From: an uncultured Spirochaetales bacterium
Lineage (GTDB): Bacteria > Spirochaetota > Spirochaetia > DSM-27196 > CAZFLD01
Reading direction: 5' to 3'
DNA: 64,000 bases
NCBI GenBank assembly: GCA_964519835.1
Contig: CAZFLD010000016.1
Location: 825 to 64,824 of the forward strand
Below, piece after piece: positions 11,144 to 19,232 of the stretch. Every line of letters begins with the position of its first letter. Position 1 is the stretch's first letter. A program made the translations under genes and the position numbers. The notes under the pieces were generated by a model. The model did not search any database and was not told where the DNA came from. It saw nothing but the letters and a program-made list of their open reading frames with translations.

Positions 11144-11582
11144 ATGGCAGGTTTCCTTCGCGGCGCCGGCCCGCGCCGAGGCCGTCGCGGACTTCGATCC
11201 CCGTACCCAGTGTGATGTTTTCGAGTGCCAAAAGCTCGACGATCGGATCCACGAGCTTTATCCATAGTGCCTTGTCAGTTATTAGCAGGGATAGCTCGGG
11301 ACGGAGGATTTCTTGGCCCCCGGGCAGATGGCTTACAATCGCCTTGCACAGGAAGCGGACGCAGTCCCGGGTGAGGTTTGTACGACCACTACTGAGCGTG
11401 CCTAAGGGTATACGGTAGGGGCCCGCGGGATTAGCGAGGGCGAAGCATTCGCCGCCTACAAATCCACCCGCGAGGCAGGCTACAATCTTCTCTTGAACAT
11501 CGGTCCAATGCCGAGTGGCCGTTTTCCGCCGGAAGGTGTCGACCTGCTTCTGCGCCTTGCCGAGCAAATTGACAGAGGATAG
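11143..11582 (+). pseudogene. C-terminal remnant of an alpha-L-fucosidase (GH29)
   Basis: One frame reads FECQKLDDRIHELYP*CLVSY*QG*LGTEDFLAP…PGEVCTT…*GY…GYNLLLNIGPMPSG. NLLLNIGP is the GH29 signature. Four internal stops; ends 4 nt before the sulfatase ATG. Confidence 0.75.
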
Positions 11583-11586
11583 CAAC

Positions 11587-13119
11587 ATGAACAAACCAAA
11601 CGTCGTCGTTTTGTTTACCGACGATCAACGCTACGACACAATTGCCGCTCTGGGTAATTCCGAGGTCAAGACCCCGAATCTCGACAAGTTGGTAGCGCGC
11701 GGCACGAGCTTTACCCACGCCCACATTCCCTGCGGGACGGTAGGCGCAGTGTGTATGCCGAGTCGTGCCATGCTCCACACCGGCCGGAGCCTCTACCACC
11801 TTGGGACCGAGGAGGAACCCGACAATGCCGGTGCGACGATCCCGCAGGAGCACACCTTGATGGGCGAGGTGTTTCGCGCCGCAGGCTACGACACGTTTGG
11901 CACCGGCAAATGGCACAACGGGCCGGCCGCTTTCAACCGCAGCTTTGGCTCGGGAAAGGAGATCATGTTCGGCGGGATGGCCGACCACTGGAACGTGCCG
12001 ATGTGTGACCACGATCCTTCCGGAAACTACGACAATCTGCGGCCGATGATCCATGACCCATATGGTAGCAATGAGATATCCATGCATCACGTCGATCACA
12101 TTCATCCGGGTTCACATTCCACGGACCTCGTCGCCGACGCTGCCATTGCGTTCATCCGGGGTGCGGCGGCGGATGCCGAAAATCCCGCGGGTCCCCGTGA
12201 TGCCTCCAAGCCGTTTCTCGCCTACGTATCGTTTCTTGCGCCCCACGATCCCAGGTCCATGCCAAAGCGTTTCTTAGACATGTACGATCCGGCCTCGATC
12301 ACGTTGCCGGAGTCCTTTGCTCCGGAGCATGTCTTTGACTTTGGTGTTTCACAGATCCGGGACGAGCTACTCGAGGAGTATCCCCGAAGCCAAACCGCCG
12401 TCAGGGGGCACATCGCCGAGTACTACGCGATGATCAGCCACATCGACGAGGCGGTGGGGCGTGTGGTCGGTGCGCTGGAGCAGCAGGGCGTCCTCGACAA
12501 CACGATCATCGTGTTCGCGGGAGACAACGGCCTCGCCCTCGGCCGCCACGGGCTTATCGGCAAGCAGAGCAACTACGATCACAGTGTGCGAGTGCCGCTT
12601 ATGTTTGCGGGGCCGGGTGTTCCGGCCGGCAGGCAAACCGACGCCTACGCATATCTCTTTGACGTCTTCCCGACACTGTGCGATCTGACCGGCTTGGTGA
12701 CGCCTTCGAGCGTCGAGGGAAAAAGCCTGACGCCGGCGTTTGTTTTGGCCGAGGTCTCCGACGGCGGGGCGGCCGAGAGCTGCGCGACCGGTCACGCCAT
12801 AGGTCGCCGCGACGTGTTGTACTTCGGTTACGGCGATTTGCTTCGCAGTGCAAAAGACAAGCGCCACAAAATAGTCTTGTATGCGAACAAAGACCGCAAC
12901 TACATCCAAATGTTCGACCTTGTGAACGACCCGGAAGAAATCAAAAACATCGCCGGACTCCCGGAGACGGCCGCGGCGCAGGCGGCGCTGTCCGATGCGC
13001 TGATGGAATTGCGGGACGAATGGGAAGATCGCAAGACGTGCTGGGGCCGTGACTTCTGGAACCGCTTCGAGGGCAACGGGAGCCTTGCCGGGGCTCATAT
13101 CGTGCGGAGCGCCTTGTGA
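11587..13119 (+). CDS. S1 (formylglycine-dependent) sulfatase, Cys type, no signal peptide
   Basis: KPNVVVLFTDDQ, CMPSRAMLHTG (CxPxR), GKWH, APHDP and GDNG motifs; ATG at 11587 after GAGG. Confidence 0.92.
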   Translation: MNKPNVVVLFTDDQRYDTIAALGNSEVKTPNLDKLVARGTSFTHAHIPCGTVGAVCMPSRAMLHTGRSLYHLGTEEEPDNAGATIPQEHTLMGEVFRAAGYDTFGTGKWHNGPAAFNRSFGSGKEIMFGGMADHWNVPMCDHDPSGNYDNLRPMIHDPYGSNEISMHHVDHIHPGSHSTDLVADAAIAFIRGAAADAENPAGPRDASKPFLAYVSFLAPHDPRSMPKRFLDMYDPASITLPESFAPEHVFDFGVSQIRDELLEEYPRSQTAVRGHIAEYYAMISHIDEAVGRVVGALEQQGVLDNTIIVFAGDNGLALGRHGLIGKQSNYDHSVRVPLMFAGPGVPAGRQTDAYAYLFDVFPTLCDLTGLVTPSSVEGKSLTPAFVLAEVSDGGAAESCATGHAIGRRDVLYFGYGDLLRSAKDKRHKIVLYANKDRNYIQMFDLVNDPEEIKNIAGLPETAAAQAALSDALMELRDEWEDRKTCWGRDFWNRFEGNGSLAGAHIVRSAL

Positions 13120-14660
13120 AAAACATCCTTTTTATTACTACCGACCAGCAGCACCACATGGCAATGGGCTATCGAAACCCCGAAGTAAAGACCCCAAACC
13201 TCGATCGCCTCGTCTCCCAGGGCATGACCTTCCATCGCGCCTACACCGTGAACCCCACCTGCACACCGACTCGCGCAAGCCTTCTGACCGGCACCTATCC
13301 GAGTCAGCACGGCGCCTATAGCCTGGGCACCAAACTCCTGGAGAATCGAAAGTCTATCGGGGAGTACCTACGTGGAGATGGGGTTAGGAGCGCGCTCGTC
13401 GGCAAGGCTCACTTTCAGCCGCTTCGCTCCACCCACGAGTACTCGTCCCTCGAGGCCTACCCAAAGCTTCACGATCTCGATTTCTGGCGAAGCTTTCACG
13501 GCCCGTTCTACGGGTTCGACCACGTCGAGCTCGCGCGGAACCACACGGACGAGTCTCATGTCGGCCAGCACTACGCGCTCTGGATGGAAGAGAAGGGCCT
13601 TTGGAACTGGCGCGATTATTTCCTGCCGAACACACCCCAAACGACCTTCGAAGGCGATACGCTCACCGAATCGCAGCACACGCCCCGTGTCCCCGGTCAG
13701 GCCTGGGAAATCCCGGTCCAGTACCATTACAACGCCTGGATTGCCGATCGCACAAATGCCCTCATAAAACAGTACGCGGAGTCCGGCGATCGGTTTTATC
13801 TTTGGGCGAGCTTTTTTGATCCGCATCCGCAGTATATGGTGCCGGAGCCCTACGCATCCATGTACGACCCGGAACACGTCACCGTGCCCGAGCACACGCC
13901 CGGCGAGTTCGACGACAAGCCGCCCTACTACAAAAAGGCGCTCGAGGAGAATCCCGACGTTAGCGAGTTCCAGGAGCCCGAAGGAAACGCGATCCACGGC
14001 GGGGGAAGCCATCTCAAGAGTCGCGAGGACAAGGCAAAAAACATCGCCATGATGTACGGCATGATGACGATGCTCGACGACTACATCGGTAGTATTCTCG
14101 ACAACCTTGATCAGCTCGGCCTGGCCGACCAAACACTTGTGTGTTTCACAACCGACCACGGCGACTTTTTTGGGCAGCACGGCCTGACGGCAAAGGCGAT
14201 CCACCACTACGAGGATGTAATCCGAGTGCCGCTGGTCGTGCGCCTTCCCGGAAGCGTGCCCGCCGGCATAACAAGCGAATCACTCCAGTCGTTGGTGGAC
14301 CTTCCGGCGACCCTTTTGTCCATGCTCGGCCTTGCCGTGCCCCGGGAGATGACCGGCGTCGATCAGTCGGCCGTGTGGAGGGGCGAGGCGGACACAATTC
14401 GCCGTCGTCTTATCGTGGAGAATCAACACCAGCCGACAAAACTAAACATCCGAAGCTTGGTGACGGATCGCTACAAGATCACCGTCCACATGAACCGCGA
14501 CTACGGCGAGCTCTATGACCTTCAAGAGGATCCGGGTGAGCTCGTGAATCTCTGGGATCACCCCGAGGCGGCGGGGCTCAAGAGCCGCCTGCTGCTCGAG
14601 TTTATCCACGAGGAGATGGCAAAGGCGCCGCTTCCCATGCCGAGGATCTACGGCGCGTAG
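13116..14660 (+). CDS. S1 sulfatase, Cys type
   Basis: NILFITTDQ, CTPTRASLLTG, GKAH, DPHP, TDHG and ELYDL..DPGE motifs; GTGA overlap with the upstream sulfatase. Confidence 0.92.
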   Translation: MKNILFITTDQQHHMAMGYRNPEVKTPNLDRLVSQGMTFHRAYTVNPTCTPTRASLLTGTYPSQHGAYSLGTKLLENRKSIGEYLRGDGVRSALVGKAHFQPLRSTHEYSSLEAYPKLHDLDFWRSFHGPFYGFDHVELARNHTDESHVGQHYALWMEEKGLWNWRDYFLPNTPQTTFEGDTLTESQHTPRVPGQAWEIPVQYHYNAWIADRTNALIKQYAESGDRFYLWASFFDPHPQYMVPEPYASMYDPEHVTVPEHTPGEFDDKPPYYKKALEENPDVSEFQEPEGNAIHGGGSHLKSREDKAKNIAMMYGMMTMLDDYIGSILDNLDQLGLADQTLVCFTTDHGDFFGQHGLTAKAIHHYEDVIRVPLVVRLPGSVPAGITSESLQSLVDLPATLLSMLGLAVPREMTGVDQSAVWRGEADTIRRRLIVENQHQPTKLNIRSLVTDRYKITVHMNRDYGELYDLQEDPGELVNLWDHPEAAGLKSRLLLEFIHEEMAKAPLPMPRIYGA

Positions 14661-14689
14661 TGGGCCGCCGCACCCACGAACCACGCCGA

Positions 14690-14985
14690 CGCGAGGCCGA
14701 TGATTTCCTCGAGCGTTATCACTTCATCCAAGAGATACGCATCTCTGTTGCTTTGAGTCCACAGGATGGGACGGGGAAGCTCGGTAAAAAAGGCGCCGTA
14801 CAGCGACTGACCAAAAAAAGAGCTCCAGCTGTTTCCGATCTCGCAGACCGGCGGAGCTCTGCATCAATTCTGAGGCGAATGTATCGAACTCGCCGGGAGT
14901 CAGGTCCGGATGAACGGCAACGTAGGCCGCCATGGCTTCCGCCGCGGAAAGCTGGTCTTGTAGGCGCCGTATTGTTTTTTGTCAT
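14690..14985 (-). pseudogene. Possible CHASE-type sensor-domain remnant
   Basis: AMAAYVAVHPDLTPGEFDTFASELM resembles the start of CHASE domains; no intact frame. Confidence 0.3.
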
Positions 14986-15077
14986 GGTAACAATCGGGCA
15001 CTAATCACAGGATCTATACGCGGCCCCGAGTGTATCATACAATCCCTGTAATAAAACTCAGGCCCAGGGAGGTGTGT

Positions 15078-15482
15078 ATGACTTTTGGTCAGACCAAAAG
15101 CGCTGGATTGTTGGATCTCCGCGCAGACTCGGTTATTGCGGATGTCGCAACGGCTTTTTGTATGGACGGGGAAGAGGCCGGTCGCTTCAGCCGGAAGTGG
15201 ATTACGCGCCTCGAACCCATCGCTCATTTTGGACAAGGCGACCAGGCGATTATCCGGCGTGGTCTTGCTCATCTGGCCCTCAACATGGTCGATGACTATC
15301 GTCGCGACGTCGACATCGACCAAAGCATCGGCAAGTACAACCCTGTGGCGGCCGGCGTTTGGGACGCCGAGAGTATCGCAGAGGAGCTCGAGGCAATTAT
15401 AGAAGCAACGGAGAGTCCCGAGCTCGACCACATCGTGTACGGCGACGGCGGCGGGACAACACAAGACTGGTGGATGTGGTAA
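15078..15482 (+). CDS. Hypothetical 134-aa protein with a DDYRRDxxxDxxxGKYNP motif and a C-terminal GGGTTQDWWMW tail
   Basis: Strong SD GGAGG at 15068 and ATG at 15078; the stop overlaps the start region of the downstream kinase. Confidence 0.75.
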   Translation: MTFGQTKSAGLLDLRADSVIADVATAFCMDGEEAGRFSRKWITRLEPIAHFGQGDQAIIRRGLAHLALNMVDDYRRDVDIDQSIGKYNPVAAGVWDAESIAEELEAIIEATESPELDHIVYGDGGGTTQDWWMW

Positions 15483-16657
15483 AAGACGCCCGGGCATCTT
15501 CAGCGACCGCGCGCCTTCACGGGCGCGTGGGTCTTATTATCGCGATAGCCGGAATCCTCGTTCTGATTATCAACTTGGTCACCATGCCCCCTGAAGTACG
15601 GGGGCTGGCATTTCATCGGATACTGGTCTATCCACAGATAGGCGGAGTGGTGCTGGTCGCAGGTCTGACCTTGTTCGCAGCGCAAAAGTCCGAGCTTCGC
15701 CTGTGGGACGTGCTGATAACGGCGATAGTTGGACTTGTGGCTACGGCCGATGCCGCCAGTGCAAATCTCACCGGTTTTGTCTTTCTGCTCCTATCCGTAC
15801 TCATTGCGTGGCAGTACGGATATCTCGTGACACGCACCCGCACAAAGCTCGCTGTGATCCTGATCCTATACGCAGGTTCCATGGTAACCAGCGTTGTTCG
15901 GTCAGAGTCGGTGCGTGCTTCGGGCGTGGCCATGACCGGTCTGGCCGCGGTGGTTGTTTGCGGGATAATGTGGCTTGTTGTCTTTCGTGGTGTGACCAAA
16001 GACCGACAGCGGGCCGCACAGCTCGAAAGGACCGTCGCGGAACGAACTCACGAGCTTGATAAGGCACTAAGGACTCAACAGAACCTGCTCCTCGAGGTTC
16101 ACCACCGCACAAAAAACAACCTCCAGATTGTTTCGTCGATCCTGGCCCTCGAATGGAATCGGAGCGGCGAGCTTCCGACCGATGCGGCGGTCCGGCACAC
16201 TCAGATGCGCTTGCGGGCGCTTGCCGACACCCACGATGTTCTCTACAGCAAGACGCCCGACCAAAAGACGGATTTTGCCGCTTTTGTGGAGGACTTCATG
16301 GACCGTGTCCTAACCGACGCCCATGGCGGACCTCCCATCGACACCGATATTCACTTCAACACCGACGTGCCGTTGGATTGGGCAATACGCATGGCCCTGC
16401 TTTTCAACGAGATTATCCTGCAAGTCATGACGACGAACGCGGGAGAAGGGGCCCGACGGACCGTAAGCCTCATCTCGCGTGAGGAAAGCGAAACGGCACG
16501 TATCTCGGTCGACAGTCCGTTGGACGAGCAGTCGCTCCGATTTGTGCAAGCCGTGGCGGCGGGCCTATCCGGAAGCGCTAGAATTGACGAGCGCGGCGAA
16601 GGCATCGTTGTGGAGATCCCACTCCCGGACGAGGCGGAAGCCATCCGCGAGTTCTGA
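15470..16657 (+). CDS. Multi-TM (about 6) HisKA_2 sensor kinase-like protein with a degenerate ATPase domain
   Basis: Hydrophobic N-terminal half and EVHHRTKNNLQ H-box. N-box reads NEIILQV and no DxGxG is seen. GTG starts at 15470 or 15476. Confidence 0.8.
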   Translation: MDVVKDARASSATARLHGRVGLIIAIAGILVLIINLVTMPPEVRGLAFHRILVYPQIGGVVLVAGLTLFAAQKSELRLWDVLITAIVGLVATADAASANLTGFVFLLLSVLIAWQYGYLVTRTRTKLAVILILYAGSMVTSVVRSESVRASGVAMTGLAAVVVCGIMWLVVFRGVTKDRQRAAQLERTVAERTHELDKALRTQQNLLLEVHHRTKNNLQIVSSILALEWNRSGELPTDAAVRHTQMRLRALADTHDVLYSKTPDQKTDFAAFVEDFMDRVLTDAHGGPPIDTDIHFNTDVPLDWAIRMALLFNEIILQVMTTNAGEGARRTVSLISREESETARISVDSPLDEQSLRFVQAVAAGLSGSARIDERGEGIVVEIPLPDEAEAIREF

Positions 16658-16757
16658 GACTGCTACCACCCGTAGACCGATCTACTCTGCTCGCTCCTAT
16701 TGCTCGATACATACTCGACCACAACACGATAGGTGTGGGCGGCCGTTGCAGGGCCTT

Positions 16758-17723
16758 CTATGCCCCGGCGGCGGCGCGCCGGATGGTCTCCAAACATCGC
16801 AGGGCGCCGATCTGGTAGTAGGATTCTCCTGGATACATAATGATGTGCTTGATGTTCATCTTGAGGTTGTAGATCGCCACGCGTGTCTCGAAGCCGTCGT
16901 CCACATCGTAGGCGCTGCGGTAGATTTCGAGGAAGTTACGGTCTGCTACGCCGAAGAGCATCGCAAAAGAAATCTCGCGAGCGTAGTCCGCGAAAAATCC
17001 GGGAATGTCGATAAACCCCGTAACACGAGGCGGGTCCGCCTCGGCGTCGATCATGACGTTGCCGCTCCAGATATCGTAGTGGGTCATTACCGGCACCGTC
17101 ACTTGTGACAAAAAGTGCGCGAGCTCGGGACGAATCTCCCGCGCGCCCTCCAGAACCGGCTCCGGCACCACGGCGGCGGACTCGGCCTCGGATAGTACGG
17201 TATCAAAGCGAGGCAACCAGAACTCACTCCACGCTTCGTGCCGATCCTCCGGATGCAACTCCACGCCGCCGAAACCTATCCCCCGTCTTGCGTGCAATTC
17301 CACCACACACTCGGCTATCTCGCGGATAATGCGCCTTCGTTCGCCGTAGTTCAGAAGACCAAGGCACTGGTGCATAACCTCGCCCGGAAGACGAGTCATA
17401 ACCAACGCGGTGCCGGGGATGTGCGTGCCGTGATCTAGAAACAGGGGCTCGGGCACCGGCATATCACTCCGCTCCGCAAACTCCCTGAGGACCAAAAACT
17501 CCCGAGCAATCCGCCCATCATCATCGTGGGGGCTAATCTTGATGACGATCTTGGTACCCCCGGCATCCACCGCGATCACCCGATTCCAGCAACCGCCGGT
17601 TAGGATGGTATAGCCTACGACGTGCACGTTCTCGCCGAGGGCCTCGCCCGCGAGATGGCTTAAGGCCCGGTCCGAAAGAAAGGGATCAATTCGGCTATTG
17701 AGGAGCTCTTCTTGAACGTTCAC
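16758..17723 (-). CDS. Aminoglycoside phosphotransferase/fructosamine kinase-like protein
   Basis: GGCWN loop, VIK, PVPEP, HYDIWSGNVM (Brenner motif) and FID. Confidence 0.85.
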   Translation of the reverse strand: MNVQEELLNSRIDPFLSDRALSHLAGEALGENVHVVGYTILTGGCWNRVIAVDAGGTKIVIKISPHDDDGRIAREFLVLREFAERSDMPVPEPLFLDHGTHIPGTALVMTRLPGEVMHQCLGLLNYGERRRIIREIAECVVELHARRGIGFGGVELHPEDRHEAWSEFWLPRFDTVLSEAESAAVVPEPVLEGAREIRPELAHFLSQVTVPVMTHYDIWSGNVMIDAEADPPRVTGFIDIPGFFADYAREISFAMLFGVADRNFLEIYRSAYDVDDGFETRVAIYNLKMNIKHIIMYPGESYYQIGALRCLETIRRAAAGA

Positions 17724-19105
17724 GTTTCCGCGGGGATTGTGAGCACAAAACGAGCGCCGTCGCCGGAGGAAATATCGAGCGTCGCTTTGAGCTGCTGAGC
17801 GAAGCTGTCGATAAGCGTCAGGCCCAGTGATTGACGTTCGCTCTTGAGCACACTTTCGGGAAGCCCGGGTCCGTTGTCGGCAAATTCGAACCTAACGGTG
17901 TCGCCTTCGCCCTGAAGTGCAATGTGAAGTTGGAAGTCTTTGGTTTGCGGCGCGGCATGGCGAAAGGCATTGGTCATGAGCTCCGCCAGGATCAAGCCGA
18001 GTACCACCGTGGTCTTTGGACCCAGGCCGACTTCTTCGAGGGAGAGATGTAACTCCGCCTTGTTGTCATGGCTGCTCAGGTCGAGAAGATCACCTACCAA
18101 GTCTTTGATGTACTCGGCGGTGGAAATCCTCTCCACACCCGTTGCGTTTCGGTACAGGCGGTCGTGGACCCGCAGGATTGCCCCGAGATGTGCCTCCGCC
18201 TCTTCAAGCGCCTTTTGGGTCTCCGGCAGTTGCGCCGCATCCCGTTGCAGGGACAGGTAGCTGGCCACGGTAAACAGATTGTTTTTTACCCGGTGATGAA
18301 TCTCACGAATAAGAGCGTCGCGATCATCGATCGCCTTTTCCATGGACTTTTGGGCCGCGTCCGCCTCCGTCACGTCACGGAGGAGAAACAATGACACGCT
18401 CCTGTCGTGGTCGTAGATCCGCTGCCGCCGAGCCTCGAATACACGCCCCCGGTGCTCCGTCCGCTTTGTCTCGCCATCCGATATCTCGACGAGGTGGGGG
18501 GCGACCGCGGAGAGATTCTTTCCCAAGGCGTCCCGCAGCGTAGACCCAAACATCGCCAAGCCGGCCGCGTTGCTGCCGATGAGGTCCCCCGCCGCCGTGG
18601 CGAGGATAACACCCTCCTGCATGCCGTCGATGGCGGAACGTAGCTGCCGATTCTCCCACAGCAACTCCTGGCTGATCCGGCGGTGATGCAGCGATTCCAA
18701 ACCAAAAACGCCGGTCGGTTTCGCCCTCCGGTCGATCGCGGCAATTGCCTGGGACAGGACGTCGGCCATTGCCGTGGACCGGTTCTTGGCGACATGGGCG
18801 TCCGCGGGAATCTTCAGGACCTCGTCCTCCGCCTCGCGGGCTATTGCCGAAACCAGTATCACTTTTATTTGCGACCACTCCGGCTCTGAGCGGATAATCC
18901 GACAAAGAGTCGCACCGTCAACGTTCGGCATGACCAAGTCAGTTACGACTAGATCGTACGACTGGTCGATAAGTCGGTGAATTGCCTCTACGCCGGATGC
19001 CACGGTGTCCACGGCATCCCCTCGCGACTCGAAAAAGGCACGATAGAGCTCCTGGAATACAGGATCGTTTTCTACTGTGAGGACTCGACGATGGTTTTGC
19101 GGCAC
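17720..19105 (-). CDS. Hybrid REC-PAS-HisKA_2-HATPase histidine kinase
   Basis: REC with VVTDLVMP, EIHHRVKNNL, ELMTNAFRH, DNGPG and SLGL; probable GTG start at 19105 after GGAG. Confidence 0.88.
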   Translation of the reverse strand: MPQNHRRVLTVENDPVFQELYRAFFESRGDAVDTVASGVEAIHRLIDQSYDLVVTDLVMPNVDGATLCRIIRSEPEWSQIKVILVSAIAREAEDEVLKIPADAHVAKNRSTAMADVLSQAIAAIDRRAKPTGVFGLESLHHRRISQELLWENRQLRSAIDGMQEGVILATAAGDLIGSNAAGLAMFGSTLRDALGKNLSAVAPHLVEISDGETKRTEHRGRVFEARRQRIYDHDRSVSLFLLRDVTEADAAQKSMEKAIDDRDALIREIHHRVKNNLFTVASYLSLQRDAAQLPETQKALEEAEAHLGAILRVHDRLYRNATGVERISTAEYIKDLVGDLLDLSSHDNKAELHLSLEEVGLGPKTTVVLGLILAELMTNAFRHAAPQTKDFQLHIALQGEGDTVRFEFADNGPGLPESVLKSERQSLGLTLIDSFAQQLKATLDISSGDGARFVLTIPAET

Positions 19106-19232
19106 GAGTACAAGGTATCTCCAAAAAGAACGGTTGGTCCAGGGCATTGTCACCCGGACGGGTCGAGGTGCGGGTGTTTTTTTGATCGTGTACACCAAAA
19201 CTGCATTCCGTTCGTCAATACTGGGGAGCGCG

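Follow-up and report, generated by a model that had tools for sequence, protein, structure and literature searches.

A tryptophan-tailed helical protein and a polytopic sensor form a two-gene module in spirochaetes, with a shortened copy in an uncultured Spirochaetales bacterium

The window analyzed here is a stretch of 64,000 nucleotides from an uncultured Spirochaetales bacterium (NCBI GenBank assembly GCA_964519835.1, contig CAZFLD010000016.1, positions 825 to 64,824 of the forward strand; all positions below are counted within the window), in which a small gene, hereafter S, directly precedes and overlaps the gene of a membrane-bound sensor kinase, hereafter T (Table 1). S is a shortened member of a spirochaete-restricted family of ~185-amino acid (aa) cytoplasmic all-helical proteins, and S and T together constitute a self-contained two-gene signalling module of spirochaetes. 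The module is a so far unannotated variation on the theme of a modifier or precursor that works with a polytopic sensor, and its interest lies in the S family and not in the damaged copy of the window.

Table 1 Features of the S-T locus in the window
Feature	Position	Strand	Description and basis
Ribosome-binding site of S, GGAGG	15068..15072	+	5 nt 5′ of the ATG, read from the sequence
S gene	15078..15482	+	Open reading frame from ATG to TAA (TAA at 15480-15482), 134 aa
Deletion junction in S, codons T43-R44-L45	15204..15212	+	Alignments; metagenome contigs bridging the junction
Acidic motif of S, DDYRRDVDIDQSIGKYNP	15291..15344	+	Columns invariant or near-invariant in homologue alignments
Flexible C-terminal tail of S, GDGGGTTQDWWMW	15441..15479	+	Homologue alignments, homologue model
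Sensor gene T	15470..16657	+	395 aa from GTG 15470 (or GTG 15476)
Hexahelical membrane sensor domain of T, QYGYL loop motif conserved	15506..16040	+	Profile match, homologue model
HisKA_2 dimerization/phospho-acceptor domain, intact HHRTKNN H-box	16094..16309	+	Pfam match, residues 209-280
Divergent catalytic (ATP-binding) region of T	16380..16654	+	Alignment with partner proteins

The 134-aa protein with an acidic motif and a flexible tail that a preliminary description of this DNA had picked out is present exactly as described, judged from the open reading frame (ORF) and the sequence, and carries LNMVDDYRRDVDIDQSIGKYNP at residues 68-89. Its start is placed at the ATG at 15078 and not at a GTG at 15030, because the closest homologue, P0002 (182 aa), begins at the equivalent Met. 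The family-conserved positions within the motif are D73, Y74, D77, D81, K86, Y87, N88, and P89, and the Trp characteristic of the family is W132 (15471-15473), the third residue from the C-terminus. Both candidate GTG starts of T precede the TAA of S, so that the stop of S indeed overlaps the start region of a HisKA_2 kinase as had been claimed, and this overlap suggests translational coupling of the two genes. No match was obtained for the window S in Pfam (E ≤ 1) or NCBIfam, for the window as a whole in Rfam and tRNA scans, or for a sigma-70-like site in a promoter scan of positions 14600-16900. Shortly after the S stop, within the 5′ end of the T coding region, lies a 10-bp GC-rich hairpin (15507-15530, + strand; CCGCGCGCC-TTCA-CGGGCGCGTGG) followed by a T-rich stretch, which could attenuate read-through from S into T or be a chance occurrence; three terminator-like sites were found in the scanned region against 2.0 expected.

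The T protein comprises a receptor domain with six transmembrane (TM) helices, a coiled linker, a HisKA_2 phospho-acceptor domain (PF07568, E 1.4e-15, 57.6 bits vs a cut-off of 22.3), and a divergent C-terminal ATPase region. In the window T, HATPase_c and HATPase_c_2 were undetected even at E ≤ 1, and there is no DxGxG (G1) or GxG (G2) box at the places where aligned partner proteins have DDGPG and GLG. HATPase_c has likewise been lost at loci L002, L019, L028, L036, and L046, and since relatives with an intact S (L002, L019) share the loss, the missing ATP-binding domain looks like a feature of the clade rather than local decay. According to a profile search, the window T is the single copy of its TM domain in the genome.

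The kinase had been expected to span the membrane about six times without a large periplasmic domain, and the model of a homologous T N-terminal domain (predicted local distance difference test, pLDDT, 89.7) agrees with this: six long TM helices are predicted, joined by very short loops and followed by a long helix at the C-terminus. In neither the window protein nor any of the 50 scanned partner proteins is the TM region matched by a Pfam family, the named membrane sensor domains (MASE, 5TMR-LYT, 6TM_PilS, and similar) included. An ESM Atlas language-model search with the TM domain yielded only generic MASE-like clusters (0.92-0.95), and Foldseek found no match to the domain model in the PDB at E ≤ 0.001. 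Full-length structural matches of the model comprise the hexahelical membrane domains of the adenylyl cyclases AC9 (Z 10.4, 176 residues, 3.2 Å), AC5 (Z 9.0), and Rv1625c (Z 7.8) as well as the diguanylate cyclase ImcA (Z 9.2). The available text of PMC4821796 describes the Vibrio autoinducer receptor CqsS as having an identical 6-TM design, as being regulated by its ligand, and as capable of regulating Rv1625c. Because of this statement and of the adenylyl-cyclase-type matches, the modelled T domain would belong, by analogy, to a receptor type that is associated with lipophilic ligands. The predicted six TM helices, minimal loops, and long helix leading into the output domain are common to T, CqsS, and the class III adenylyl cyclases, whereas no sequence relationship to these proteins is shown for T, the TM domain of which has no Pfam match.

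A profile of 17 members retrieved 355 cluster representatives at E ≤ 0.001, 114 of them at E ≤ 1e-30, from 1.84 billion proteins, and nearly all of the 150 matches listed are 160-200 aa long. All ten S-family clusters that were looked up are unnamed or labelled “hypothetical protein”, one of them stemming from a Spirochaeta metagenome-assembled genome (MAG). When one genome per prokaryotic species was scanned, 49 loci were found, 49/49 in Spirochaetota; the scan used a 7-sequence alignment, and this range is a lower bound, as the search patterns stemmed from spirochaete sequences. The gene is present in 13/41 genomes of the order to which the window belongs and in 9/151 genomes of an even sample of the phylum, including 7/7 of one distant AT-rich family, f37, in which the identity of S drops to about 20-25% (estimated by eye). 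The module is also carried by a cultured strain, Brucepastera parasyntrophica RmG11 (locus L049). No longer or fused forms of S, fused S-T proteins included, were detected among proteins of 339-2000 aa, which is weak evidence by the tool’s own grading, and an ESM Atlas search with S gave nothing usable.

Six residues are invariant in the 40 S proteins derived from these loci (P52, R95, D132, N139, P140, and W182 in the numbering of L004), and a further ten are at least 90% conserved (A55, C57, T63, Y71, L96, G104, G105, Y125, D128, and G144). Judged from this pattern, the conserved polar residues look like a ligand-binding or catalytic site. The family motif can be written as D-[YH]-x-x-D-x-x-x-D-x(3-5)-K-[YF]-N-P; its D-x3-D...NP core is found in 105/132 full-length representatives and 38/40 locus proteins, and is kept in f37. 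The reading of the motif as “DDxxD” did not hold, as the first Asp of the “DD” in the window is unconserved across the family.

At E ≤ 10, a Pfam search with the 17 homologues returned only weak matches to DUF5685, DUF7162, and Ribosomal_S16. DUF5685 (PF18937) is the sole Pfam family touched that resembles S in the acidic motif (2/17 members, best E 0.02), its motif IDAIDDFxxDxKxxKxN being similar to that of S and aligned to it by hhalign. As a parent family, DUF5685 was rejected: only the motif region aligns (31 columns in hhalign, E 0.47, probability 0.1), and the gathering cut-off of 26.7 bits was reached by 0/17 members, with no match to the family in a search of the genome of the window either. 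DUF5685 proteins further differ from S by their length of 280-340 aa, a Cys-rich N-terminus, and the absence of a Trp tail, and f37 genomes hold both DUF5685 proteins and separate S homologues. In the f37 loci L066-L073, DUF5685 proteins (278-344 aa) lie between a TldD/PmbA-like gene and a convergent histidine kinase at 7/8 loci; these seven syntenic loci all come from one genus and the synteny is therefore not independent evidence.

The C-terminus of S has a recurrent architecture, in which a conserved CPEMD-like turn is followed by a variable linker of ~10 residues, an aromatic residue, and the invariant Trp. That homologues should share a terminal Trp on a variable tail had been proposed beforehand, and this is what they show. 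The near-terminal Trp is present in 40/40 locus-derived proteins, and 124/132 full-length representatives have a Trp within their last 15 residues, 99/132 as an aromatic-Trp pair. After this pair exactly two residues follow in 53/99 and one to three in 83/99, and in f37 one or two residues come after a final GFW. No secondary structure is predicted for the last 12 residues of the P0002 model (pLDDT 67-69). Paralogous modules within one genome differ in their tails (L003/L009 and L004/L010). Tail divergence also tracks the divergence of the T TM domain beyond that of the S core (partial Mantel r 0.23, reached by 0/2000 permutations, in a test that is inflated by shared phylogeny), and this co-divergence is a weak hint that the tail acts as the signal. 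In genus g6 (loci L015/L065 and L095), the S upstream of T is reduced to its last 73-74 codons, which still encode the CPEMD turn and a QYW tail, with an antisense membrane-protein-like ORF where the N-terminus of S would be. These remnants were considered as conserved tail-only peptides; the idea was rejected, as the tail DNA is less conserved between two genomes than its flanks, and they are read as decay.

A polytopic sensor next to S had likewise been predicted as a consistent feature, and it is found at nearly all loci. At 14/14 loci of relatives, the next gene on the strand of S encodes a membrane protein and either overlaps S or lies within about 60 bases of it. Among the 49 loci of the genome scan, the T N-terminal profile matches the next ORF in 38, and in seven more a 233-304-aa ORF with 4-6 TM helices predicted from hydropathy comes directly after S. 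Two loci end at contig ends, and L063 and L064 have a truncated S followed by an ABC-transporter-like gene instead of T, so that a polytopic membrane protein lies directly downstream of S at 45/47 loci with downstream sequence. The linkage is kept in the deeply divergent f37, where the kinase is of a different type, and in f14 (L100, S with T-GerE), and 13/13 S-bearing genomes among the 41 relatives also have the T domain. Flanking genes beyond the pair are unconserved.

The partners share a ~190-aa TM domain joined to different outputs. Among 41 downstream proteins, 18 carry HisKA_2 and 17 a GerE/LuxR helix-turn-helix (HTH) domain, while six (one of them cut by a contig end) have nothing recognizable; nine other partners include four with HisKA_2, four with GerE, and one with another kinase type. 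These domain assignments show that T has exchanged its output between a kinase and a LuxR-type HTH. Some loci depart from the simple pair. On the chromosome of an Alkalispirochaeta MAG (OZ271854.1), which also has a second S-T locus (L033), locus L022 (3920-8469) holds one S followed by three tandem paralogous T-HisKA_2 kinases. In the complete genome G008:C1, at locus L012 (2399-2917, - strand, and the next ORF), T-GerE is split, its TM portion (170 aa) and its HTH portion (111 aa) being in different frames; the T-GerE match of the genome search contains one TAG there and S is intact, which suggests that this receptor is frameshifted or broken.

The predicted fold of S bears on what the protein might do. 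The AlphaFold2 model of P0002, built from a 17-sequence alignment, consists of ten helices (mean pLDDT 91.2), and in a comparison with 48,161 chains by the exhaustive structural aligner VIA-align, 50/50 matches listed had the isoprenoid-synthase fold, among them trans-prenyl synthases, MoeN5, terpene and squalene synthases, UBIAD1, and DabA. The best match, 9imq_A, aligned 168/182 residues at Z 8.0 and a root-mean-square deviation (rmsd) of 4.6 Å. The T model, although just as helical, drew hits of similar Z from assorted unrelated proteins in the same search, and because the S list is homogeneous while that of T is mixed, we read the modelled resemblance of S to the isoprenoid-synthase fold as real, if loose. 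The weak top rows of a Foldseek search with S were enriched in UbiA homologues, MoeN5, prenyl synthases, and terpene synthases. Like the trans-isoprenyl diphosphate synthases and class I terpene synthases (PF00348 and relatives), S is predicted to have their helical arrangement and an acidic motif at a helix end with Asp residues spaced four apart. In contrast to them, S is half the size, lacks the first Asp-rich motif, shows no profile similarity, and superimposes at an rmsd of 4-6 Å; where class I terpenoid synthases have two Asp-rich metal-binding motifs on opposing helices (DDxxD plus a second DDxxD or NSE/DTE), S has a single conserved acidic motif, and S gave no match to a member family such as PF00348 polyprenyl_synt.

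In Bacillus subtilis, the genes of ComQ (~300 aa), its substrate ComX, and the polytopic sensor kinase ComP overlap, with the kinase encoded directly downstream. ComQ belongs to the isoprene-synthase superfamily, keeps only one of two Asp-rich motifs, and prenylates a Trp of ComX, as described in the available text of PMC10853753, and in ComX168 the farnesyl group sits on the third residue from the C-terminus, a Trp, according to the accessible part of PMC13731918. The same portion of PMC10853753 presents PalQ of Paenibacillus alvei, another member of this superfamily, as prenylating the conserved C-terminal Trp of PalX (core DNVRRFFW), with a histidine kinase in the cluster and with the terminal Trp placed by AlphaFold in the active site of the enzyme. 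Enzymes of the ComQ/PalQ type prenylate the indole C3 of a Trp that lies at or close to the C-terminus of a peptide, and on this point the S family offers an analogy in the position of its Trp. S resembles these systems in several respects: a single Asp-rich motif, as in ComQ so far as that text goes; a polytopic sensor encoded directly downstream by an overlapping gene; and, compared with the PalQ-PalX-PalP cluster as it is portrayed there, an aromatic-aromatic-Trp C-terminus in PalX and a histidine kinase nearby. The differences are equally marked. S is ~185 aa long without detectable sequence similarity to ComQ, and matches no terpene-synthase family by sequence, unlike PalQ. The enzyme-like domain and the Trp tail reside on one S polypeptide, whereas ComX is a short (about 55 aa) stand-alone precursor and PalX a separate NHLP-type peptide; S has no match to the Pfam family ComX, and its Trp tail belongs to a folded ~185-aa protein. 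PalQ, in the part of the source at hand, requires Trp as the last residue, whereas the S family usually has one to three residues beyond it. In contrast to ComP/ComA, T has six TM helices with short loops and signals via HisKA_2 or a LuxR HTH; no response regulator is linked to S-T, and the phylum is Spirochaetota.

Because S reproduces the triad of ComQ and PalQ (fold class, position of the Trp, and adjacent polytopic sensor), we tentatively propose, by analogy and as a possibility that is more doubtful than probable, that ComQ/ComX- or PalQ/PalX-like logic is fused in one polypeptide, S prenylating its own tail Trp and T reading the resulting signal. In this mechanism, S would bind a prenyl diphosphate through its acidic motif and would transfer the prenyl group to its own tail Trp, in cis or across a dimer. 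The lipidated tail, either after release or still attached at the inner leaflet, would then be a membrane-soluble ligand read by the six-helix bundle of T, which would relay the signal by phosphotransfer or by direct DNA binding. The genome of the window encodes two polyprenyl synthases, and prenyl diphosphates should therefore be available. Three outcomes had been named beforehand as refuting the preliminary reading, namely a lack of isoprenoid-synthase fold matches, homologues without the terminal Trp, and the lack of a consistent membrane sensor next to S; all three were checked and none was obtained. The full specific form of this idea, in which S uses a miniature domain of isoprenoid-synthase fold to prenylate the third residue from its C-terminal end, the Trp, and the tail serves as the specific ligand of the adjoining receptor, is unlikely, and more so than the general analogy.

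Several results weigh against self-prenylation. The matches of S listed superimpose at an rmsd of only 4-6 Å, and helical models can reach Z 8-13 by chance. Foldseek against the PDB found nothing for the P0002 model at E ≤ 0.001 (best E 0.44), a sequence-profile search of the PDB with S gave nothing below E 0.49, which is chance level, and hhalign of S with ten spirochaete polyprenyl synthases, in global as well as local mode, stayed below a probability of 0.1; the local alignment put the acidic motif of S on the first Asp-rich motif of the synthases at a probability of only 0.09. S and its homologues match no Pfam or NCBIfam family save the trace of DUF5685 (E 0.02, 2/17). S thus remains “prenyltransferase-like”, as the preliminary description put it, in the fold of a homologue model (Z 8.0) and not in sequence or profile similarity, and the isoprenoid-synthase match that was sought is present in 50/50 listed structures, at moderate Z and without a significant Foldseek counterpart. 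S is about half the length of ComQ- and PalQ-like enzymes, and its acidic motif stands alone, there being no conserved Asp-rich motif in the N-terminal half, with a first Asp that is not invariant. Co-variation between tail and core is weak (mutual information, maximum z 3.9 vs 6.7 within the core), and T occurs without S in 12/41 related genomes; four such solo-T loci that were inspected have no S upstream. A predicted complex of S with the T TM domain (ipSAE 0.00, two runs without controls) speaks neither for nor against binding.

Further points against self-prenylation concern the location of the two proteins and fit a different explanation, namely that S is a non-catalytic co-sensor, i.e., a cytoplasmic ligand-binding or adaptor subunit of T, the pocket of which binds a metabolite, possibly an isoprenoid or other diphosphate, with nothing being lipidated or exported. 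In its particulars, an equally uncertain version, the aromatic-Trp-x-x end would be a docking peptide or interfacial anchor on the cytoplasmic face of T, for instance at the (E/Q/K)-Y-G-Y-L loop. S has no signal peptide, and its tail and the N-terminus of T are predicted to share the cytoplasmic side, given that the N-terminal segment of T is positive and its helices number six. There is no conserved protease, exporter, or response-regulator gene beside the S-T pair. The co-sensor explanation would also agree with the overlapping stop and start, which suggest 1:1 co-production, with conserved motifs on the cytoplasmic loops of T, with the single S ahead of three tandem T kinases in L022, and with an S whose size leaves no room for the cavity of a canonical prenyl enzyme and whose sequence is dissimilar to those of such enzymes. 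It is at odds with the invariant residues, which are mostly polar or acidic (D, D, N, R, Y, C, T, and G-G) and more typical of an active or metal site, with fold matches that among those listed are exclusively enzymes of one superfamily, and, as weak evidence, with the absence of fused S-T proteins among those of 339-2000 aa. We regard a co-sensor as rather unlikely in itself, and yet as nearly as likely as the fused ComQ/ComX-like reading.

The enzyme-like features of S would also suit a signal synthase with its receptor, following the logic of CqsA/CqsS or LuxI/LuxR, in which S would be a miniature terpenoid-type enzyme that makes a lipophilic molecule from a prenyl diphosphate, T would read this molecule in the membrane, and the Trp tail would be an active-site lid or membrane tether and not a substrate. 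The gene producing the CqsA/CqsS signal adjoins the receptor gene, CqsA itself being a pyridoxal phosphate-dependent acyl-CoA transferase unrelated to S. Besides the isoprenoid-synthase-like fold, the D-x3-D-x3-D motif is in favour of a synthase, as its i, i+4, i+8 spacing equals that of the NSE/DTE metal triad of class I terpene synthases. So are the loop-less hexahelical domain of T, which resembles adenylyl-cyclase and CqsS receptors proposed to bind lipids, the adjacency of synthase and receptor together with solo T receptors in genomes without S, and the conservation of S, which much exceeds that of the T sensor domain (mean column identity 46% vs 28%). However, we know of no enzyme of the isoprenoid-synthase fold as small as 185 aa, only one acidic motif is present, and the explanation leaves unaccounted for a Trp held 1-3 residues from the C-terminus and the differing tails of paralogous modules in one genome. 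Both the synthase and the proposed role of the tail in it are improbable.

Whatever the family does, the S of the window departs from it. An in-frame deletion near RKWITRL had been suspected from the sequence and is confirmed by alignment with P0002, where 95/133 aligned residues are identical (71%) and a 49-residue gap opens directly after KWIT(RL). Because “RL” flanks both ends of the segment in P0002 that is missing from the window, the exact breakpoint is ambiguous by two codons. Projected onto the P0002 model, the deletion removes helices 58-73 and 77-80 completely, helix 41-53 for the most part, and helix 90-97 at its start, so that helices 3 to 6 of the ten predicted ones are missing or incomplete. 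Also lost are the Pro that is invariant in the family and the positions at which Ala, Cys, Thr, and Tyr are near-invariant. The junction is bridged with 0 differences in independent contigs from two microbial-mat metagenome runs of one study (X1 and X3), in the assemblies of which no longer form of S was seen; as these runs may include the sample behind the genome, the agreement excludes only a one-off assembly error. Three more short forms are known from the representatives: in P0099 and P0144 the missing part is approximately this N-terminal segment, and in P0095 it is the acidic motif.

The sole other S-like gene in this genome (G000) lies outside the window, on contig C12 (67765-68265, - strand; locus L090:3233-3853), in a 207-aa frame with a profile E of 4.6e-22. 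It is full length, has both conserved Asp of the motif replaced (DHKRAADSRNPDGRTNP), still ends in ...NRWVPES, and is followed by a 589-aa HExxH lipoprotein-like ORF and no TM sensor.

Since the window S is without 49 residues that include conserved positions, the proposed prenylation chemistry probably cannot run in the organism of the window, a further point against self-prenylation there. The deletion in S, the degenerate ATP-binding region of T, and the second S without its two Asp make it probable that the module of the window is crippled or repurposed, and the locus either decaying or repurposed. For this copy alone, an alternative is a decaying remnant without signalling function, the frames of which are merely not yet disrupted. 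In addition to the three defects just named, the second S-like gene does not adjoin a T, and decayed copies occur elsewhere, as the truncated S without T in L063 and L064, the C-terminal remnants of 73-74 aa in L015 and L095, and the short variants P0099, P0144, and P0095. Against decay, the deletion is exactly in frame and both reading frames, the motif, the tail, and the start overlap are all intact, the retained residues are 71% identical to P0002, the loss of HATPase_c is common to relatives with intact S (L002, L019) and so a trait of the clade, and the identical form was assembled from at least two runs. On balance, we consider a remnant to be almost as probable as not.

Literature searches turned up no description of the S-T module. 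Two unannotated domains, the ~185-aa Trp-tailed S and the 6-TM receptor domain, have been defined here, both with high-confidence models, and are linked in nearly all loci across spirochaete families. Cell-cell and envelope signalling in spirochaetes are poorly understood. If S lipidates itself, ComX/PalX-type signalling would have its first version in which modifier and precursor are fused, with receptors whose output is either a kinase or, without an intermediate, a DNA-binding domain of the LuxR type. S would then also be, to our knowledge, the smallest known enzyme of the isoprenoid-synthase fold, and the module the first peptide-lipid cell-signalling system that we know of in spirochaetes. 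The proposed prenylation of the tail can be tested cheaply, as a mass shift on one C-terminal peptide, and cultured strains carry the module. T, for its part, offers a bacterial model for ligand sensing by adenylyl-cyclase-type hexahelical domains, the ligands of which are a long-standing question.

Several neighbouring genes of the window deserve mention. Directly upstream of S-T are two tandem sulfatase genes (11515-13119 and 13116-14660, + strand; Pfam Sulfatase E 8.8e-49 and 2e-39) with overlapping stop and start. Convergent with T lies an APH/fructosamine-kinase-like gene (16758-17723, - strand), which is overlapped by 4 bases by the end of a gene for a REC-PAS-HisKA_2-HATPase hybrid kinase (17720-19198, - strand); the two probably form one operon. 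A close homologue of the APH-like gene is found just upstream of the S remnant and T in L095 and L015, and this neighbour may be loosely associated with the S-T module.

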